This document shows, piece after piece, positions 17,229 through 36,489 of a stretch of 64,000 nt of DNA. Source of the stretch: Minutocellus sp. GHC0000111 (lineage: Eukaryota); the NCBI GenBank assembly GCA_977018835.1, contig OZ361257.1:1054001-1118000 (forward strand), read 5' to 3'. Each line of letters starts with the position of its first letter. The first letter of the stretch is position 1. A program made the position numbers and the translations under genes. Below the pieces are notes generated by a model. It was not told the origin of the DNA. It searched no databases and worked only from the letters and a program-made list of their open reading frames with translations.

Positions 17229-17517
17229 TAGGCGGCATCAGCGCGCGTCTTTTGATGACCGACCTGCTTAAAGTTTCGAAGTTACGCGCAGTGACTTTCT
17301 GATTGACGTCCGGAACCGGTCCTGGCTACGTAGCTACGTAGCTACGTAGCTAGCTGGCTAGTGCCTGCTTTTGGGGTCTATTGAATGATTGATGTCTACA
17401 CGTAGACTACCGGAGGAGCTGAGCGCGAAGGCCAGAGATTGATGGTTCAATTCATCAATTCATTCGATGGATGGCTGCATTCTTTTCCGCGATTCTCGTG
17501 TTAGTGTGACTGACTGT

Positions 17518-19019: not shown

Positions 19020-19065
19020 TAGATCTAGATCTACATACCGGTACCGGAATGTAGATCTAGATCTA
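19020..19065. repeat. 46-bp near-perfect palindrome
   Basis: tagatctagatctacat-a-ccggtaccgg-a-atgtagatctagatcta, with a single A/A mismatch. Confidence 0.95.
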
Positions 19066-26368: not shown

Positions 26369-28836
26369 CACAGCCCCATCTCGTCTTGTTTCGCCGGTCG
26401 GATGAAGCGTTTTTCGGCAGAAGACGAACACGTCACGAAGAAACCCACCAAAACCCAATCTCGTTCGTCACCATCTTTGACCGTCCAACACCATGGTGGT
26501 CCGTCGGCGTTGCGCCGGCGTATAACTATATTTTCGTACCAAATACGCATTCATTATCATGTTTGGATATAGTTGAAGCTTACTGTATCCTCAGATTGGC
26601 CTCCGCTGCGTGTCAACGCCACGAACCATCAACCCACTTTTCCTCCATCTGTCGGCCGTTCGTTTCTCTGGGGTGGCACCATTGCTCCGTCTTTGTGCTC
26701 GTCGTGCTCCCGTTGTGATGCCCCAGACCCTCTGGTACTTTCCCACGTTGTTGTTGATGATAAACTGCCGGGATTGCGCCGCACCCCCCGTATGACCGAC
26801 TCTCGCTGATCCCGACCGATCGCATCCCCACTCGACCTCCCGGAATTCCGACAACAATTTTGCGCCCGAGGAGAGACAGATAGCATTGGGATAAGTTTAT
26901 GCAACAATCAACCCGACAAAGGGACTTTTTGGTCTGGGAGATAAATGGGTGAGTTAAGAAGGACGTGATGTGTTTGTTTGGGTGTACTATTTACTTTTTT
27001 GCTCAATCGCGACACTGTTTGTAAAAGTTGGACCATGCAATTCATTTGTTGTTGTGTAGCAGCAGTGTAATTTCATTTTCTAATTTTATACATGCCCTGC
27101 TCCCATCTCTACATCCTCATCTCCATCGGTGGCCATCATGATCATTTGTTGGCGCTTGTCATCAGTTTCTGCTTTAACAGCTTCGGTCCTTGTACTTTTC
27201 CTTGTTCTTGCCGCCACCCGAGAGTTTCGCTCCCGCCTCTCCTCGACCTTTGGATTGGATGCCCTCTCCTCAGCCTTGAACTGCGCCGTCTGTTGGGCCT
27301 CATGTCCCTTGACGCCCTGAGTCCGACGATCTTCCTTAACGCCCTCTTGGTGGGCTCGCTCTACAAACGATTCGTCGAGCCAATAGATGCCGCCCCATCC
27401 ATTCTTCACTAGCCAAATGTGTTGGTCCAAGATGTGATCTTCGAGCAAGTGCCACTTGGGCGTCATGCTAACACCGATTGCCCGTGCTTGCTTGAGGGCA
27501 CTTGCAATCAATGCTTCAAGCTCTCTCACAGCCTTCTTTGCCTCATCATCCCATTTCATGTGCCATTTCAGAAACCTGGAATATGTTGCGTCAAGAGTGT
27601 GGAGCAAATTAGAGCAAGCTTTGCAGAGCTCTTTGATGTCGTCATCCGTCATGCCATCATCTTCCTCGCGATTGTGCTCTAGGAGAGTTCCTTTGGTGGA
27701 GGTGTTATGGTGGATGAACTCTATTGTCCTTGGTTTCTTCTTGTTGTTGCCATCAGAAGTGTTAACAGACAAAGCTCTCCAGCATTCTGCCAGCACTGCC
27801 CTTATTTTATCTGAGTCGGCCGCCTCAATGCCGGCCTTTTTCAGGAAATGGAAGTGAGGGGCATCGTCATCCTCGGCATCATCGACAGCTCCCATCTCTG
27901 GCTCGCCATCACCGTGCTTCTGACGATTCTTCTCAAAGTGCTGCTGCATGTGTGCTTCATGTGCAGCGTCCTCTCTTGCAATATCAGCTTCGTCCTCATA
28001 ACCGGGCACATAGTCCTCGTCTTCGTCGTCATCGTCCTCGCTGATCTCGCCGGCCTCCGTCGTGGTCAGGGTGCCCACCGTCCCAACATCGTCGTCATTG
28101 TCCCACCCATCGTCCTGGCCATTGCACCCACCAGGGAACTTCTGGGCCTCGAGCAACATCTGCCTGTTGATTTCGTAGTCCATCACAGCATGTCCCACCG
28201 ACACATGTGGTGCGACCGACTTGAGGAATGCATTACATGCCTTCGTCAAATTGAGCCGCGGCGGCGGCATTTCGAGGCGAAATTGTTGCTCGACCGTGAC
28301 CATGTCGAAAGCCATCCATCCATCATCATGGAGAGCGTCGGCTGCACGAGGATTGACAGAACCGAGGCGAACAAACATGCTCTTTTTGCATGGGGTTCGC
28401 TGAACGTCGTCTGCAAGGCAGTGTCTTGATGCCATTTCATCCCATCCATTCTGGTTGTCTGTCCTCACAAAAAACACATCGCACAGTCTTCGTGTTTCTT
28501 CTTCTTCAAACCCAAGATGCCCGCAGTGCACATGACGGCGCAGCACATGATGGGACTGCATCCCAACACATTCATCAAGGAGTCGTTGTTGTTGCCGATG
28601 AAATTGTAGTAATGAAGTTCCTTTCTGCTAAGACGGACGAGTAGTTCAGCCAGGGCGTCCTGCACCGCAATTCTGTCTGCGGTGTTGACCGCGGGATTGC
28701 GGCCGTTATTTTTTTTGCTCATGGAGAACTATGGATAGAGACCAACAGGAACATCACCGGTTGCTTCGCGCGCCGGCCGGCCACCGAAAGTGCGACCAAA
28801 AGTATGCGAGTCATCCGGCTGGCAGATGGTGCTGTG
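26369..28836 (-). mobile_element. CAC...GTG DNA transposon (Chapaev/Transib/RAG1-like), internally deleted, 2468 bp
   Basis: Left end CACAGCCCCATCT-CGTCTTGTTTC-GCCGGTCGGATGA; right end (reverse complement) CACAGCACCATCT-GCCAGCCGGATGA. Flanks CTTG and CTAG could be a 4-bp TSD with one mismatch. Encloses a transposase remnant. Confidence 0.7.
27086..28722 (-). pseudogene. Transposase remnant of the Chapaev/Transib/RAG1-like DDE group
   Basis: The C-terminal signature TPKWHLLEDH...GGIYWLDESFVERAHQ resembles the Zn-binding H-x4-H and catalytic-Glu helix of this group. The N-terminus (ATG 28722) is frameshifted near 28470-28500. No motifs for the first two catalytic Asp were seen, suggesting a central deletion. 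Confidence 0.65.
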
Positions 28837-29419
28837 CTAGGTACCTAGGTGTGTGCAACGCTCTGCCTGCTTCCTCGTGGAAGGACTTTTTGGAGGGCCG
28901 TGGCATTTCGGAGTTCATGAGGGTTCGCTTCGTATTCCCACCAGACTTCATTAAGAGGGCGCTGTCCATAACTTTTAGGAAGCCCCCAAAATGCGTGTTT
29001 TGTGCCGTTTTTTCTTCGCACCATCGCCAAAGTTAGCACTCCAACGTGACAATGGGCTCCTCATCGAAGGCCGCCGCTCTCCACAGCGGCGAAGAGTCAT
29101 CGACGTTCCTTTCAGCATTAAGTCGGAAATCCCTCCAGGAACACTTGGTTCAGAGGAACTTCGATGAATCAACTCTCCCTCAGAAACACAACAGTCGACG
29201 CACACATCATCGTCGGATCGACCGAAATTAGTCTCGGCCGACGCATAACCAGCATTGGTGGTGCTGGTGGGAAGATATCTTGAAGTTTTGCTGTTGGGAG
29301 GTAAGGGGATATTTGTTTGGGGTATTTTTGCACGTCTCCCTCATTTGGGGTTCTTTTTGTAAGGTTCTCATCGAAAAGCGTGTCTTGCGCCAGAACCGAC
29401 ACAAAACAAAAAAACAACC

Positions 29420-31736
29420 ATGGAAACATCACGTGCTAACGCCAAGGAGGCAATCCTCTCACTCTTGCTCTCATTCCCAGACGACGTCAGATGTACTTAC
29501 TACACTGTTGATGAGCTTGTCCGCATCTTGATGCGCGGTGGCGTGTCGCCGAGCTTAGAGATCTCTCTTGTTCGATCATCTCTTCAACACGTCCCAACAC
29601 GACACGAGGTCAACAACATCCAACGACGACGTCCAGAGAAAATATCAGGCCTTGACGTTGCAAAGCCCTTCTACCGCTTCTCCAGAATAGCCGATAACGC
29701 CAGCCCACGCTCTCAACGCAATGACAAGCGATCACTGCCGACCACACCTGAAAATTGCTTCCAGGACGATGAAAAGCATGGGCCCCATCTCAACGCGACA
29801 CTGAAATGTCATTCCGACAAGAATTCTTCGGGCGGTCGGTCATCTACTCCCACCGCCAACGCTACCGATCGTCCCAACATCACCGGCGTGCAGCTCAACG
29901 GCAAAAGAATTGTGGTTGAGATGAAGCAGCTGTGTGATTTCGTGCAGAATCTCCACCGATCGTGCGGCAATCTGCATCTCTCGGCCGAGCCAGTTCGGCG
30001 TGGATTCGGCGTTACATTTGAATGGCGATGCGATAGATGCAACCAACCTTTTTCTTTTTGCACTTGGATCGGCCAGAGGTCAGAAGTTGTGTGCCCCGGC
30101 AGAAAGCATTCTAGAAGTCAGGCTGGAATGAACTTGGAGCTGATGGAGGCAGCGGAAGATGAGGCCACGTACGCAAGTCGCTTCATGAATTTCTGCACGA
30201 AGGCCGACATCGTCCATCCGACCGAAAAGAATGCCCGACAGGTGGAAAAGAAATGCAGAGCAGCGGCTATTGAAGCAGCTGATGAAATCATTGACGAGAA
30301 TAGGGCAAAAGCACATGCCGCTAGCAGCAAGACTGTTGAGTTTGAACAAGGCGGCGAGATGCACACGGCGGCGGTGGTTACGGTGGCCCAAGACGGCAGC
30401 GCCCTCAAACGCGACTACGGCCATTGCTACACTGGCTCTGCTGCAGCGGTATTTGCCGTAGACAAGGAAACTGGCCTTGTTGTTAACAAGGGAATCTCTC
30501 AGGCAAGCTGCCACTATTGCGTGAGAGCCTGCAATGCAAGATTGAGGGAGAGGCGGGAAGCCGGCAATCCAACAACGCCGAGTGAGCTCAAAAACATGAG
30601 CAAGGATGAGACACTGGCCCTGTACGACCATGATGGCTTCTGCTATCGCAACTCTTCCTACTCCCCCGGTGTGGCAGAGGAGCATCTGGCCGAGAATGTT
30701 GGGAGTTGAAAATTTTAATGCCATCCCCCGACCACGCATCAATCGGATGAAACAGGACATTTCGAAGATTACTGATCGGTACAAGCACAGCGTTCTCGAT
30801 CAGCCCGATGGTGCTGTGTCCGAGGAGGAAAAACAAAGTCATCTGGCCCTCCTTCAGAAAGAACTCCAGTCCGTCGTTCGTCACCAATGTGGCATTCACA
30901 CTTTTTGCACCACCAACACGTGTGATTGGATTCGCCTCAGCATTGCTCATCCTGATTGGAGTGATGGCAAGCTCGATGAAGAATGGAGCTCGGGGAATCA
31001 ATTCGATGGCGACATATTGGAGATTAGTGACGACACGATTCGCAAGATGACGCTTGAAATAACCAAGAGAATCAACAAGAATACTGCCGACTCCAACTGC
31101 AAGAAGGAATCTACCACCGGCGTCGAACAGCTCAACGGGATGGTGACGAAGTTCACGATGGGGAAAAGGCCGAATTTGACTGCTTCAGACGCCTACCCAA
31201 ATGCAACAAGTAGAGCCGCTGGCCACAAGTCACTGGGTACGGAATTCAATGAGCGAGTTCTTGGAAAGTTGGGATCGAGGGATTCTCCTACCCGAAAAGA
31301 TGGATTCGATGCAATTGACCGGAAGCTCGAGGGCGACCTTGCGCGTAAGCGCACCGATGAGTACAAAAAGAGCAAGAGCGACAGCAAGCGCCTTCGAGCA
31401 GCCTTGCGAAACAGAAGCGAGAAAGACGACAAGGACTATGTGTACAAGAAGAACAGGGCCCTAGCTGCTGGTAAGGCGAAACCAGCAAAGCCTGGCCGCA
31501 AGAAGAAGATTGACCAGCAGTGTCAGAAATGCAAGCAGCTTGGCCACACTCGGGCTGAATGTCAATGCGACGATGCTGACGACGTTGTCGTTTACGCCGG
31601 AAAGAAGCGCAGAAGCCCAGGCAGCAACAAGAAATCTGCAAGAAATAATAAGAAAGCTAAGACAAACTTCGGTGTATCGGCAAATGATGTTAGCTCTTGG
31701 ATGCCGGCGATACTGAGAGAAAATGGCAGCTTGTAA
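29420..31736 (+). pseudogene. Kolobok-type DDE transposase with an internal deletion and frameshift
   Basis: Motifs: GFGVTFEWRCDRC; first Asp in VAQDGSALKR...TGLVVNKGISQASCHYC; HDGFCYRN; HQCGIHTFC; catalytic-Glu region TTGVEQLNG; C-terminal knuckle CQKCKQLGHTRAEC. The frame changes at about 30700, where the expected (G)DGD and CxxH segment is missing. Confidence 0.8.
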
Positions 31737-31840
31737 ACACGTGTAAAATATTTTATCACTGTAAATAAAAATGGATTTATTGTGTGCTGTTACTCACGTG
31801 CTACGCACATTCTTGTTATCTACATGTGTTGAGGTAATGA

Positions 31841-33070
31841 TTATGCATTTTCCTCTTCTTCTTCCTCTTCATCTTGATGACCAGGGATGAATCCAACATA
31901 TCGTTCACCTTTATCATTTGGATAAATGAACCTAATGCAAAAGACTAGACAGGTTGGCAAGGGCTTCCGATCAAGCCAACCTCTCACATGATACACCTCA
32001 GTTGCATAGTACCAATACAGCATGTTCCTCTTCAAATTATTTGCCATGGCTTCGACTGGCATGGTGGTTGCGTAGTATTTGTCAGCGATATCCTCCAGGT
32101 CCTCCTCCGTCGGCACCAGCATTTCTTCGCAGACGCATTTCTGAAAGAAGAGTGTGCCGTACATTGAGCAGCTTCGGTTGGCGGCAGTGCAGCAAGCAGG
32201 GGGTATTGGCGGCCTCTCTCTGGTCTCGTCCCAATTACCGAATGTGTCTGCCTCCGGCGCTGCCGTCGGATCATCGTCGGCTTCCTCACAAACGGCCGCA
32301 ACAAGAGCATCCGTGTCCGATCTGATCGCTGCTGATGGCCCACCATCTACCTGCAGAAGTTGGCCCATTCCAACAATATCAAAATCAACTAGTCCAATCC
32401 CAGCAGTAGAGTGTATGTCATCATATGGAGCCACATGCCATCGGTGGAACTTTGTCAATTTGATCACATGGCCCTGTTGTAGACTTCGGGCCTTTTCGGT
32501 AATTGTCAGGGCAACACGAGCGACGATAAGCTTTCCGCTTCCATCAAGCAAAGTAAGCGATGTGGTGTTGAAAGGTCGGCCGTGCGCAGCAAGAGCCGAT
32601 CCAATATCGATCCGTTTCCCATGAAGTTGAAATATAGGGAAGAATTCAGGTCCGGCGTCAAACATGGGATCTTGCAATTGATCGACGATGCCGACCGTCA
32701 GCCTCAACTTCACATCAGCCACGGACAGGTTGGTAACTACGAGGCCGGGCCGCTCAGCAGCGACATCAATATCATCCCGAACATGATACTTATCAGCGCG
32801 AGCCTCGACTGCTTTGACAAGATGTTGAAGTGCATGGCCGACGCCGGGATTGTTCCATAATTCTCGTCCTTGTCCGTTCGGGTCGTTCTCCAACGTGACG
32901 GCGAGGCCATCAAGTATCTCGGTAACGGCGTCTTTCGCTTTGTCCTCCGCCTTCTCTTTCTTCTTGTCAACAGGCAAAATCGGGCGACCGGAGTTATCTG
33001 TCTTGAGTTTCCGCAACCGCGTATCTGCGTTGTGGGCCGGGCCGGCACTATTATCAGCGCTGCGCTTCAT
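31841..33070 (-). CDS. Kolobok accessory protein: putative OB-fold plus KolX/P2X7-ballast-like Cys-rich domain
   Basis: Intact 409-aa ORF inside the TIRs. The C-terminus KRNMLYWYYA...RKPLPTCLVFCIRFIYPNDKGERYVGF fits the R..P.C.V..IR..FP...G.Y.GF pattern. The central segment LTLLDGSG...ARVA...SLQQGHVIKLTKF resembles the RPA70 N-terminal OB fold. Confidence 0.75.
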   Translation of the reverse strand: MKRSADNSAGPAHNADTRLRKLKTDNSGRPILPVDKKKEKAEDKAKDAVTEILDGLAVTLENDPNGQGRELWNNPGVGHALQHLVKAVEARADKYHVRDDIDVAAERPGLVVTNLSVADVKLRLTVGIVDQLQDPMFDAGPEFFPIFQLHGKRIDIGSALAAHGRPFNTTSLTLLDGSGKLIVARVALTITEKARSLQQGHVIKLTKFHRWHVAPYDDIHSTAGIGLVDFDIVGMGQLLQVDGGPSAAIRSDTDALVAAVCEEADDDPTAAPEADTFGNWDETRERPPIPPACCTAANRSCSMYGTLFFQKCVCEEMLVPTEEDLEDIADKYYATTMPVEAMANNLKRNMLYWYYATEVYHVRGWLDRKPLPTCLVFCIRFIYPNDKGERYVGFIPGHQDEEEEEEENA

Positions 33071-33300
33071 CGTAATGAAGAGGGGGCAGAGCGGCGATTC
33101 TCATGGTGGGGTCGAGTTTTTGTCATGCTTCGCTCGTCATAAGAAATAAGAATAAGGGGGATTAAAAACGGGGGAAATTATGGACAGCGCCCTCTTAACG
33201 CCCCCCCCCGCCCAAGGCAAGGGACCATAGCTAATACCAATTGGTAGCTCAGCCGATCGTTGTTTACGAACTCGTATGTGTCGATAGGCCCCGTTGCATT

Positions 33301-36300
33301 ATGCCCCCCGACCCATGGCATGCAGCCCGAGCCACCAGTCTAGCCTTTTGTGGCTTGGTACTGCTGTTATCGGTCGGATATTCGGTATGGACTCATTTAT
33401 ACCGCAGATCTCGCGTCGTCAAGGCGGGTCAGCCCTTCTTCTTGCTGATGCTCTGCTGTGGAGCAGCCATCCTCGGACTTTCCATCATCCCGACGAGTTT
33501 TGTGCTTGCTCCGTCCCATGGCACAAGGACAAGTGGTGACCAAAACCTAGGAGCTGCCTGTAGGAGCATTCCGTGGATGATTTGCATGGGGGTATTTGGT
33601 ATCTATGCGGCGCTGGCCTCCAAGATGCACCGCGCGAACAAGGTCTTCAACCAGTCCAATCGATTTCAACGGGTGCAAGTACGCGTCATTGACGGCATTG
33701 GGCCAAGTTTGATTTTTCTTGCTCTTGATTTGGTCCTTTTGATAACATGGACAGCCTCTTCGCCACTTGAGTTTGAGTACACTGACAATTCGTCGGCATG
33801 TTTCTCACCAGACGCATTGGAATACTCGGTTGTGCTGGCTTTGCTGAACCTTGGTCTGATTTGTTATGCACTCGCCGAGGCTTGGAGAGCAAGAAAAGTC
33901 GCCAATCTTTACTCGGAGAGCTCCTCGATGTTCGTTAGTATGTTCCATGTTCTATTGGCCGCAATCATTGCCATTCCGATCATTCTGCTGACGTTTTCAG
34001 GAGATAGGGACTCCGAAAGCAGTATCAACTTTGACGATTCAAAATTTGTCGTGGCGATACGTCTTTTTGCGTATGCCGCCCTTGTGTTGGTATGCTGTTG
34101 TTCCAATCTCATCCTCGTCTTTGCTCCGAAGATGAGGTCATATCGTACTCTTGAAAACGAGAAAGACGTTGAGCGTGCTGAGATCCTCCACAAACGGGGG
34201 ATGGGCAAAGCGGATGATGGCGAGTATCGGGGTGCTCTGGAGGATTTTGAGGAAGCCCTCGAGATACGTCAAACTGCACTCGGTCGTAGAAATGAAGCCA
34301 CCATCGAGACCACAAAAGCAATCACAGAACTCATTGATCACATTCGGACCGAGAGCGGAGGCATGGGCGTCCTCTCAACAGTTCCATCTTTAACGAAGAT
34401 AATCAACGGTGCAGGGGAGAAAGGAATTCGCGCAAAGAAATCCAGAAAGACAGCTGAGACGTCAACAATGATGTCTACAGCTTTCCTTAATTGCATGTCT
34501 CTTGCACCGGGAAATTCAGTAGATTCTATCACCAGCAATGATCATGTTGGTGATAGCAGCTTATCACGGAGAAGATTGAATAGAGCGATGTCAGTTGTGA
34601 CGAAGCACAATCGGACAGACCTCGCCCTGCGCAAGGCCAGGGCAGACCCCAACGTGTCGCAGTCGCACCTTGCACAATGTTTATTGGATCACGCTTCGGC
34701 ATTTGAAAAGGCGGGAAATGTTATTACAGCGTATGGTCTAGCTATTGAAGCACAGAATATCTTGAAAGCAATAGCGGAAGAAGACGAAGCAGCTGTTTTG
34801 GACGTTGCCACTTGTTGTGTCCTTCTCGGGAGAATTTGTTACCAAATGGAAGACTATGACGAGGGATATACATATCACGAGCGGGCCCTAAAAATACGAA
34901 TGAAGACAAGTGGTCTGTATACCGAACTGGTCCTCGAATCACTTGCCTACACAGCTGAAGCTCTTCTGGCAAAGGGCAATTGCGTCGAACGAGCTACTTC
35001 CTTGGCTTTTCATGCGATGGAGTACTCAAAATTGAAGCAAAATGCTGTCGAAAATATGTCTTATGCCAGAGCTCAGGGCACACTGGCAAGAGCTTATCTG
35101 TTGAACGGCCGACTCATTGAAGCTCGAAAGCTCTTCGAGGAATGTTTGGATATTTACCGATTAGACGAGTACCGAGATTACTCGAGCGGTTCAATGCTGT
35201 TGGAATATGGTAATGTTCTTTCCCAGTGTGGCGATCATGTGGAGGCGAAGGCGGTCTTTGGCCAGGCTGTTCAGATGTGCAACGAGTCGGAACAACATTT
35301 ATGTAAAGAAAGATTGAGCCAAATACCAGAAAAGGGCACTTGGCGACATTGTTTTGGCCTCAAGCACAGGCACGCGGCGCGCTTTCCTAACGTAAAGGGT
35401 CCGAGTGTGAAGGAGCCGCTAATCATTTTGACCGACATTGCTAGGGACATTGACGATGAGCTGGCCCTGAGCTTAATTGCTCCTTTAAGGAAACAAGGCT
35501 TCCTCTCGCCCGTTGCCATAATCACTACACTCCGACCAACAAAGGACCGAGCCCTATTAGCTCGTGGATTTCTCGATTCTTTCGGTTTGATCGACATCCC
35601 TATCGGCATCGGAGGTGATGGAGGCGCCAACAACGATGCCGACTTCAATGGCTCGACTTATGAAGCTTCTTCATCGCTTGATTTATCAAATGGGGGCGTC
35701 GGCATACGTCTGGACGGCATGCAGCTCATGATAGACGTCCTTAAAGCTGCTTCGCAAAAGAGCGTTCGCTTGCTATGCATCGCAAGCCTTTCCGACGCTG
35801 CCGAGCTCATCACCCGCAACGAGTCCCTATTTGCCGACCGGATGAAAGAGGTAGTAATTATGGGGGGAGCGACCATCAAATTCTCTGAAATACAGCCTGA
35901 TACAGCCTACAACAATACCTGCGACATGAAAAGTGCGCAGCTGGTTTACAAGAAATGTAAAGAATTGGGAGTTTCAACATTGACGATTACCAGACACTCC
36001 GCTTACAGCTGCTCCTTCTCAAACACACTGCTTGATGATCTGAGGGACACGGGTCACGTTGCTTCCGCAAAGATCAGAAACAACGCTCTATCTGCGCTCA
36101 ATAAGCTCTGGATAAAGATAAATTTGCCCCCCGGCGATCGAAGAAGAGAGAAGTTGCCGGCTCGTTGCGACAGACACTGGTTTCTAACAACATTTTTTAG
36201 TGACGAGGAGGCGGCCAACAACTTGCGAGAAGACGGCGATAACACATCAATTTGGGCCCAAAAAGTAATGTTTCACATGTACGACCCCCTGGCTTTGCTC

Positions 36301-36489
36301 TCCTGCATCCCGACTTTCAGGAATAAATATTTCAACGTAAAAAATTACAACATCAATGGCGTGAGTCACGGGATTTGTGGTCTATCAAACACGGACAATG
36401 GCGTTGTTGATGGCGATGCCTTATCGCAAGAAATACGATTACTGCTGACGAAGGCGCTGAAGGATTGCCTGTTGCGTTCAGAAAAATGA
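33301..36489 (+). CDS. Class C (GABA-B-like) 7TM receptor domain fused to TPR repeats and a nucleoside hydrolase-like domain
   Basis: Seven hydrophobic helices with VVKAGQPFFL, C..IPW...G...Y.AL.SK..R..KVF and VFAPK. TPRs include GEYRGALEDFEEALEIR and YTYHERALKIR. Hydrolase-like motifs are IILTDIARDIDDE, EVVIMGG, AYNN..D..SA and YDPLALL. One continuous intronless ORF with first ATG at 33301. Confidence 0.85.
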   Translation: MPPDPWHAARATSLAFCGLVLLLSVGYSVWTHLYRRSRVVKAGQPFFLLMLCCGAAILGLSIIPTSFVLAPSHGTRTSGDQNLGAACRSIPWMICMGVFGIYAALASKMHRANKVFNQSNRFQRVQVRVIDGIGPSLIFLALDLVLLITWTASSPLEFEYTDNSSACFSPDALEYSVVLALLNLGLICYALAEAWRARKVANLYSESSSMFVSMFHVLLAAIIAIPIILLTFSGDRDSESSINFDDSKFVVAIRLFAYAALVLVCCCSNLILVFAPKMRSYRTLENEKDVERAEILHKRGMGKADDGEYRGALEDFEEALEIRQTALGRRNEATIETTKAITELIDHIRTESGGMGVLSTVPSLTKIINGAGEKGIRAKKSRKTAETSTMMSTAFLNCMSLAPGNSVDSITSNDHVGDSSLSRRRLNRAMSVVTKHNRTDLALRKARADPNVSQSHLAQCLLDHASAFEKAGNVITAYGLAIEAQNILKAIAEEDEAAVLDVATCCVLLGRICYQMEDYDEGYTYHERALKIRMKTSGLYTELVLESLAYTAEALLAKGNCVERATSLAFHAMEYSKLKQNAVENMSYARAQGTLARAYLLNGRLIEARKLFEECLDIYRLDEYRDYSSGSMLLEYGNVLSQCGDHVEAKAVFGQAVQMCNESEQHLCKERLSQIPEKGTWRHCFGLKHRHAARFPNVKGPSVKEPLIILTDIARDIDDELALSLIAPLRKQGFLSPVAIITTLRPTKDRALLARGFLDSFGLIDIPIGIGGDGGANNDADFNGSTYEASSSLDLSNGGVGIRLDGMQLMIDVLKAASQKSVRLLCIASLSDAAELITRNESLFADRMKEVVIMGGATIKFSEIQPDTAYNNTCDMKSAQLVYKKCKELGVSTLTITRHSAYSCSFSNTLLDDLRDTGHVASAKIRNNALSALNKLWIKINLPPGDRRREKLPARCDRHWFLTTFFSDEEAANNLREDGDNTSIWAQKVMFHMYDPLALLSCIPTFRNKYFNVKNYNINGVSHGICGLSNTDNGVVDGDALSQEIRLLLTKALKDCLLRSEK

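Follow-up and report, generated by a model that had tools for sequence, protein, structure and literature searches.

We describe an accessory protein, OB-KolX, that defines a lineage of Kolobok transposons and joins a reduced KolX/ballast domain to a predicted OB fold of the RPA70N type. The homology between KolX and the P2X7 ballast is already known from the Kolobok survey of PMC9587614; the accessory protein, and the lineage that it defines, appears to be new. The protein is encoded by ORF2, a gene in a 64,000-nucleotide stretch of the Minutocellus sp. GHC0000111 genome (here, the window). ORF2 occupies positions 31841-33070 on the minus strand, convergent with the transposase gene of the same element, and the frame called intact in a first-pass annotation of the window indeed runs from ATG to stop without an internal stop, giving a product of 409 amino acids (P0001). 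A variant one residue apart from it, P0014, was found on 22 contigs. From the N terminus, P0001 comprises a helical bundle (aa 33-90; 32801-32974), the OB fold (aa 118-250; 32321-32719), an acidic linker (aa 251-289; 32204-32320), and the reduced KolX/ballast domain (aa 290-396; 31883-32203), all on the minus strand. We are highly confident of what this gene is and of the three-module architecture of its product, and relatives show that it is a conserved accessory gene of a Kolobok lineage found in diatoms.

ORF2 is the second of two genes in a Kolobok element of 4,240 bp that spans positions 28955-33194. The element is flanked by TTAA target-site duplications on the left (28951-28954) and right (33195-33198), and its 20-bp terminal inverted repeats (28955-28974, plus strand, and 33175-33194, minus strand) begin with GA (RR) and end with TC (YY), in keeping with the definition of Kolobok by TTAA duplications and RR...YY ends (PMC9587614). 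In addition to the sequence itself, the left duplication is attested by an empty allele, in which a contig from run X7 links 28954 to 33201 through six letters that are not those of the window and contains a single TTAA; the right duplication is attested by contigs that leave the window at 33198. Other copies are visible as contigs of several runs that exit the window precisely at 28951 or 33198 into different flanks; on the right side, these number at least four. Clustering placed 71 members with ORF2 and 170 with the transposase. Contigs from RNA runs cover ORF2, yet they also continue through the element ends, so this coverage is explicable by DNA or by read-through. In P0018, an ORF2 copy from the same cluster, 25 of 27 substitutions (D54E aside) are those expected if codons of the window underwent one change each, from TpA to either TpG or CpA, a pattern that suggests that some copies of the element in this genome were hit by TpA-directed hypermutation.

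The surroundings of the element also hold several features of note. Directly to its left, a 513-aa open reading frame (27086-28627, minus strand) ends in a transposase-like C-terminal motif; it gave no good Pfam match and no inverted ends were found for it, and it may resemble Transib/RAG-like proteins. A repeat seen in contigs lies near this frame at 28709-28836. On the right, the element inserted ∼100 bp upstream of the first ATG of a single open frame (33235-36489, plus strand) that combines a 7tm_3 GPCR-like domain, TPR repeats, and an inosine-uridine nucleoside hydrolase domain. Elsewhere in the window, near-perfect palindromes of 46 bp and 32 bp occur at 19020-19065 and 17322-17353, respectively.

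The first gene of the element (29420-31736, plus strand) encodes a Mutator-like/Kolobok transposase (Pfam PF20700, E 7e-15), which had been described as broken in the first-pass annotation. Comparison with P0204, an intact transposase of the family (cluster of 170), located the break at 30702-30703, where an internal deletion of ∼215 bp shifts the frame. The part ahead of the junction (29420-30702), with a helical N terminus, a C2C2 finger, the first catalytic Asp, and a CCHC finger, is 98% identical to P0204 residues 17-192, and the part behind it (30702-31736), with an H/C finger, the catalytic Glu, and a C-terminal zinc knuckle, is 99% identical to residues 264-607. In P0204 numbering, residues ∼193-263 are lost, and with them the second catalytic Asp and DxxH. 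An intron or a programmed frameshift at this position was ruled out by the intact copies, which hold 71 extra codons with catalytic residues. The full form circulates, as contigs of runs X5 and X7 branch at 30702 into the missing sequence and loose contig ends lie to either side of this position, and so does the deleted form, as contigs of runs X17 and X20 span the junction without a gap. Given this deletion and the circulation of both forms, the window copy is a non-autonomous derivative of a young family. Over the first ∼100 aa of the transposase (29420-29720), which may form a winged helix, conservation extends to three other loci (L008, L009, and L020). Near the start of the same gene, contigs of two RNA runs join positions 29298 and 29479 with GT..AG ends and sides of 22 to 28 letters, a weak signal that may reflect an intron where the transposase begins or else the presence of a sister family.

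[quoted passage not shown] PMC9587614 lists this finger for KolobokP, KolobokE, KolobokD, Kolobok5, and some solitary families, not for Kol0, where its absence is the rule. Because the finger follows the first Asp here, we did not file the lineage under Kol0; the reference Kolobok transposases in the supplement text of PMC9587614 were compared by eye only.

The composition of P0001 became apparent at the level of the family. As a single query, P0001 gave no Pfam match and no real match among PDB sequences, and a profile of nine sequences likewise gave no match among PDB sequences. Only a 90-sequence profile reached P2X7 and RPA70N, and these were the two kinds of protein that it retrieved from the PDB sequences at E<0.02 (E 4.9e-5 and E 0.009 to 0.016, respectively). 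The underlying alignment, A3, consists of 84 of the 150 listed family matches and 6 close sequences, with longer ones favored. AlphaFold2 run on the 90 rows of A3 gave a model of P0001 with a pLDDT of 84.9 and a pTM of 0.74, in which helices at residues 33-90 precede a beta barrel at 146-236, the linker, and a helical C-terminal domain. The helical bundle, visible in both model and alignment, is conserved in the family and has no known match. The linker carries a net charge of -10 over aa 239-289, and P0001 has an acidic tail as well. The C-terminal signature R.PLP.C.V..IR..YP...G..Y.GF and the central LTLLDG...L.QG.VIKL..F segment, both pointed out in the first-pass annotation, are present in the protein.

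Searches in other sequence collections returned little. A narrow-alignment search of metagenome contigs yielded no ORF2 relative. A viral origin of ORF2 was considered and is unsupported: the viral contigs searched held no relative, and nothing beyond generic OB/SSB matches came from a library of viral folds. The ESM Atlas provided only leads below 0.9, from the zinc domain to giant-virus hypothetical proteins (0.80 to 0.81) and from the OB part to a Rep-A_N cluster (0.85).

The central OB fold had been proposed from sequence motifs as an RPA-like domain that binds ssDNA or repair proteins. Structure comparison places the modeled fold of P0001 (residues 118-250) in the RPA70N type, that is, the protein-docking half of that proposal, and not in the ssDNA-binding type. 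Foldseek ranked RPA70N first with both models. Among 48,161 chains compared with VIA-align, yeast Rfa1N (Z 11.7) and human RPA70N (Z 11.3) were the top two, ahead of TPP1 (Z 9.2) and the ssDNA-binding domains of RPA (Z 7.7 to 8.2). A second VIA-align comparison aligned 115 residues of RPA70N, the N-terminal helix included, at Z 12.8 and an rmsd of 2.2 Å; over both comparisons, RPA70N/Rfa1N ranged from Z 10.8 to 12.8 and TPP1 reached up to Z 10.7. The model accordingly contains a five-stranded OB barrel with the N-terminal helix of RPA70N, for which the best profile match was at E 0.009. Pfam Rep-A_N matched 4 of 60 relatives scanned, weakly and in no case at the curated cutoff. RPA70N has very weak affinity for ssDNA and docks acidic-hydrophobic peptides in a groove lined by R31, R41, R43, and R91; its partners include HelB, BLM, WRN, RMI1, MRE11, and DNA2, along with others (PMC10479964). 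At the corresponding positions of the profile alignment, the ORF2 family has K/R in 21%, 30%, 36%, and 34% of sequences, and P0001 keeps a basic residue at only the first of the four, so that the conserved basic groove of RPA70N is not reproduced. In contrast to the groove, P145, D176, G177, and G200 are near-invariant. By alignment, then, the fold core is conserved and the host-type groove not clearly so.

The C-terminal domain was assigned through the family profile, which matches P2X7 residues 539-593 at the E value given above, bearing out the KolX/P2X7 similarity first proposed from the motif. The match spans only ∼55 residues, and a profile restricted to the zinc domain did not extend it to the Cys clusters. 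In a scan of 60 relatives with Pfam PF20478 (P2RX7_C), 23 matched at E<=0.1, the best at 23.0 bits, and none reached the 23.5-bit cutoff; 3 of the 60 combined weak P2RX7_C and weak Rep-A_N matches, and P0001 itself had no PF20478 match. In fold searches with whole-protein models, the OB domain filled every list, so no P2X7 chain appeared among the matches. Of the three ballast motifs, the third, (L/I/V)PSC..IRx2(F/Y)Px5Y(S/T)G, is recognizable in alignment to P2X7 569-591 (P372 in 82 of 85 sequences, C374 in 85 of 85, and R380 in 78 of 83). For the second, CCRx3GxC, P0001 has CC-x6-C (293-301), of which the first C is unconserved; the profile match ends short of this region, and the equivalence of this first Cys pair with that of P2X7 rests on motif spacing. 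The first motif, PxWCxCx2C, which belongs to a site of seven Cys and two zinc ions, has no counterpart, with neither a cluster upstream of C293 in P0001 nor a conserved Cys column there.

The CC...C...CVC cluster on which the first-pass annotation had drawn holds in part: C294 (88/88), C301 (88/89), and C312 (87/87) are near-invariant in the family, as is C374 (85/85), whereas C293 and C314 are conserved in fewer than 55% of sequences. Position 332 is the usual fifth Cys of the family. The P2X7 ballast has a dinuclear zinc site and a confirmed GDP site (PMC12047839). In the ORF2 family, with four near-invariant Cys and the first Cys cluster absent, we infer one Zn rather than two. P2X7 residues R546, Y550, P570, C572, and R578 are kept, and H547, R574, and K583 are not. 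Two of the five GDP contacts are thus retained, R546 as R348 (81/85) and R578 as R380 (78/83), and invertebrate ballast members show the same pattern of kept GDP-contact residues (PMC7016195). A basic set of K347, R348, R368, and R380, each position 87 to 96% K/R in the family, suggests a phosphate ligand.

A profile built from nine sequences retrieved 220 proteins at E<=1e-3 among representatives at 50% identity, so the ORF2 feature is not a product of chance. Named relatives among 27 proteins come from Minutocellus polymorphus (60% identical), Extubocellulus spinifer, Seminavis robusta, and Thalassiosira exigua, and two relatives derive from transcriptome assemblies. Among the 150 matches listed, 58 have at least 170 aa ahead of the zinc domain; 57 of these 58 have the OB fold, a count that is partly circular, as all but three of the sequences were in alignment A3, and 47 have the helical bundle too. 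The exception without the OB is P0202. The remaining listed matches, in which only the zinc domain is seen, have too little sequence upstream of it for a judgment; several start inside the OB fold or the linker. In all, the helical bundle was found in 57 of the 150.

The first-pass annotation had expected homologues of ORF2 to lie beside Kolobok transposases. To survey loci, metagenome contigs were scanned with a motif from the ORF2 C terminus alone, and the transposase was then called at each locus using only queries from other loci. All 23 motif loci encode an ORF2 relative, 18 of them with at least half of the OB region, and at 20 of the 23 Kolobok-type transposase sequence lies tail-to-tail with it (E<=1e-4), as expected. 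The three loci without a call have 0 bp (L003) or 279 bp (L010) downstream or a weak transposase piece at E 0.004 (L017). The PF20700 cutoff was reached by 5 of 11 locus ORFs scanned. Two loci, L008 and L015, are whole TTAA-bounded elements with GG...CC ends, the former with inverted repeats of 457 bp. A further locus (L009, 29-2821) has inverted repeats of ∼330 bp, an intact ORF2, and only an N-terminal piece of the transposase, with no TTAA at the outer edges read.

Trees of ORF2 and of the transposase, built for the 10 loci at which both are long enough, recover the same three clades; the branches that lead to the window and to L004 are long. Pairwise identities of the two proteins correlate across 13 loci (rho 0.65), and a Mantel test on the 9 loci left after dropping the close twins L020, L014, L002, and L015 gave a rho of 0.64 (p 0.005). 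Within these sequence comparisons, this shows joint descent of ORF2 and the transposase, rather than physical interaction. The dN/dS analysis called for in the first-pass annotation was run on pairs of relatives, as the window's own family offered no suitable pair. In eight pairs with dS of 0.09 to 1.1, dN/dS was 0.15 to 0.31 for ORF2, next to 0.13 to 0.19 for the transposase; four near-identical ORF2 pairs gave 0.40 to 1.46 on few changes and are uninformative, and other pairs were saturated. By this codon-based measure, purifying selection is shown among the ORF2 relatives.

ORF2 lacks a catalytic fold, descends together with the transposase, and is constrained to a similar degree, and for these reasons it probably works on behalf of the element. 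The reading that we favor, at somewhat less than an even chance, is that the protein acts without catalysis, as an adaptor through which partner proteins dock at the transposition complex. It is favored because RPA70N docks peptides and because a RecQ helicase or exonucleases are encoded by other lineages of Kolobok. Under this adaptor reading, the ballast part would be the old KolX core, seated on the complex or on DNA ends, with one Zn held by C294, C301, C312, and C374 and the basic cluster holding a phosphate ligand, either a DNA end or a nucleotide. The OB domain, likely captured from the N terminus of host RPA1, would have short acidic-hydrophobic peptides as its ligands, supplied either by the transposase or by end-processing proteins of the host, and this docking may help to complete excision or gap repair. 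The link of the OB-ballast fusion to replication or repair that had been suggested at first pass is, in this form, our inference also. Counting against the adaptor reading, the groove arginines are poorly kept and the conserved part of the domain is the fold core. A more specific version, in which a captured RPA1 head fused to KolX recruits the host partners of RPA70N (RecQ helicases, DNA2, MRN, and ATRIP), where sister lineages supply a RecQ helicase or exonuclease themselves, and so constitutes RPA mimicry in an undescribed lineage, seems unlikely as it stands.

The OB domain might instead bind ssDNA directly, at TTAA overhangs, opened ends, or repair gaps, which would make the protein an element-encoded end-protection factor and not a protein adaptor. 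We regard this as doubtful. The OB fold is clear, and ssDNA-binding OBs from SOSS1, MCM10, and RADX match it at Z 8.5 to 9.2; R185 (62% K/R), K204 (60% K/R), and position 213 (56% aromatic) are moderately conserved; and piggyBac, the other superfamily with TTAA specificity, likewise has KolX-like proteins (PMC9587614). However, the protein-binding OBs of RPA70N and TPP1 match better by 2 to 4 Z units, and in P0001 the net charge over the OB region is only +1.

Somewhat less probable again is an OB domain that has lost any outward binding role and rests against another part of the same protein (the helical bundle, the ballast, or the acidic tail), so that it would serve structure or regulation within a KolX that functions as in other Kolobok lineages. 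The variable groove residues, the confidence of the model as a single unit, and the presence of both an acidic linker and an acidic tail would agree with such a role, as would the N termini of other KolX proteins, which vary and have no obvious homologues (PMC7016195). On the other hand, the OB is kept over dozens of clusters below 50% identity with its four near-invariant residues, which fits either role and indicates that the domain is not dispensable. Least of all do we expect a decoy that acts outside the transposition complex and soaks up RPA70N partners to blunt host checkpoint or silencing: RPA70N does recruit the checkpoint proteins ATRIP and ETAA1 (PMC10479964), and the deletion derivative that keeps ORF2 without the catalytic core occurs in several runs, but the groove arginines are poorly conserved and young non-autonomous copies keep ORF2 without any selection being needed.

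A lineage in which KolX has stayed joined to a docking fold of the DNA-repair type over deep divergence links KolX with DNA transactions. Should the RPA-mimicry reading be true, the ballast domain, which P2X7 acquired from Kolobok, would gain its first functional handle. The material for such work is a soluble, confidently modeled protein of 409 aa from a young, high-copy element, and diatoms are algae that can be transformed.

The first-pass annotation knew of no described Kolobok element with this architecture, and we found no OB-KolX fusion in print: the literature searches made for it gave no description, and the term "OB-fold" is absent from the main text of PMC9587614. Kolobok-1_FraCyl, a catalogued diatom element from Fragilariopsis cylindrus (PMC9587614), has a transposase core that by eye visibly differs from the one here; the catalogued label of that transposase, Kolobok_1_FraCyl_2p, implies another product, and the novelty of the fusion could be lower for it. 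The reduced KolX-like proteins of piggyBac-2_GrCh and piggyBac-14_PI (PMC9587614) seem, by eye, too short upstream to contain an OB fold. Among the closest known systems is the KolX of the Kol0 lineage (type Kolobok-1_XT; PMC9587614), which is likewise the second gene of a TTAA-specific Kolobok and likewise ends in a ballast-like C terminus with LPxC...IR..YP...Y.GF. Compared with it, ORF2 adds the helical bundle and the RPA70N-type OB fold but is missing the first Cys cluster, the accompanying transposase has a CCHC finger after the first Asp, and the named members are diatoms, not animals.

Outside transposons, the ballast or Zn-coordinating cysteine domain of P2X7 and Nanor (PMC7016195; PDB entries 6u9v and 9e3m; PF20478) shares with ORF2 the profile match at 539-593, and P0001 contains a CC-x6-C; animal ballast proteins have N termini without obvious homologues (PMC7016195). 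Unlike the P2X7 ballast, ORF2 lacks PxWCxCx2C, has an extra invariant C312 and a usual Cys at 332, is predicted to hold one Zn and not two, and does not belong to a channel. RPA70N and the Rfa1 N-terminal OB (PF04057; PDB entries 4ipd and 5m1x) share the fold over 110 to 120 residues at 15% identity; in ORF2, by comparison, the groove arginines are poorly conserved, there are no ssDNA-binding OBs and no trimer core, and the protein is transposon-encoded. Finally, DNA-processing accessory domains that define lineages are established for Kolobok, namely, the RecQ helicase of KolobokH and Kolobok-1_CCri, the DEDDh exonuclease of KolobokD, the lambda exonuclease of KolobokE, and the His-Me nuclease of KolobokP (PMC9587614). 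In contrast to these enzymes, OB-KolX is a predicted non-catalytic binding module, and it joins the five accessory types that PMC9587614 lists for Kolobok as a sixth.
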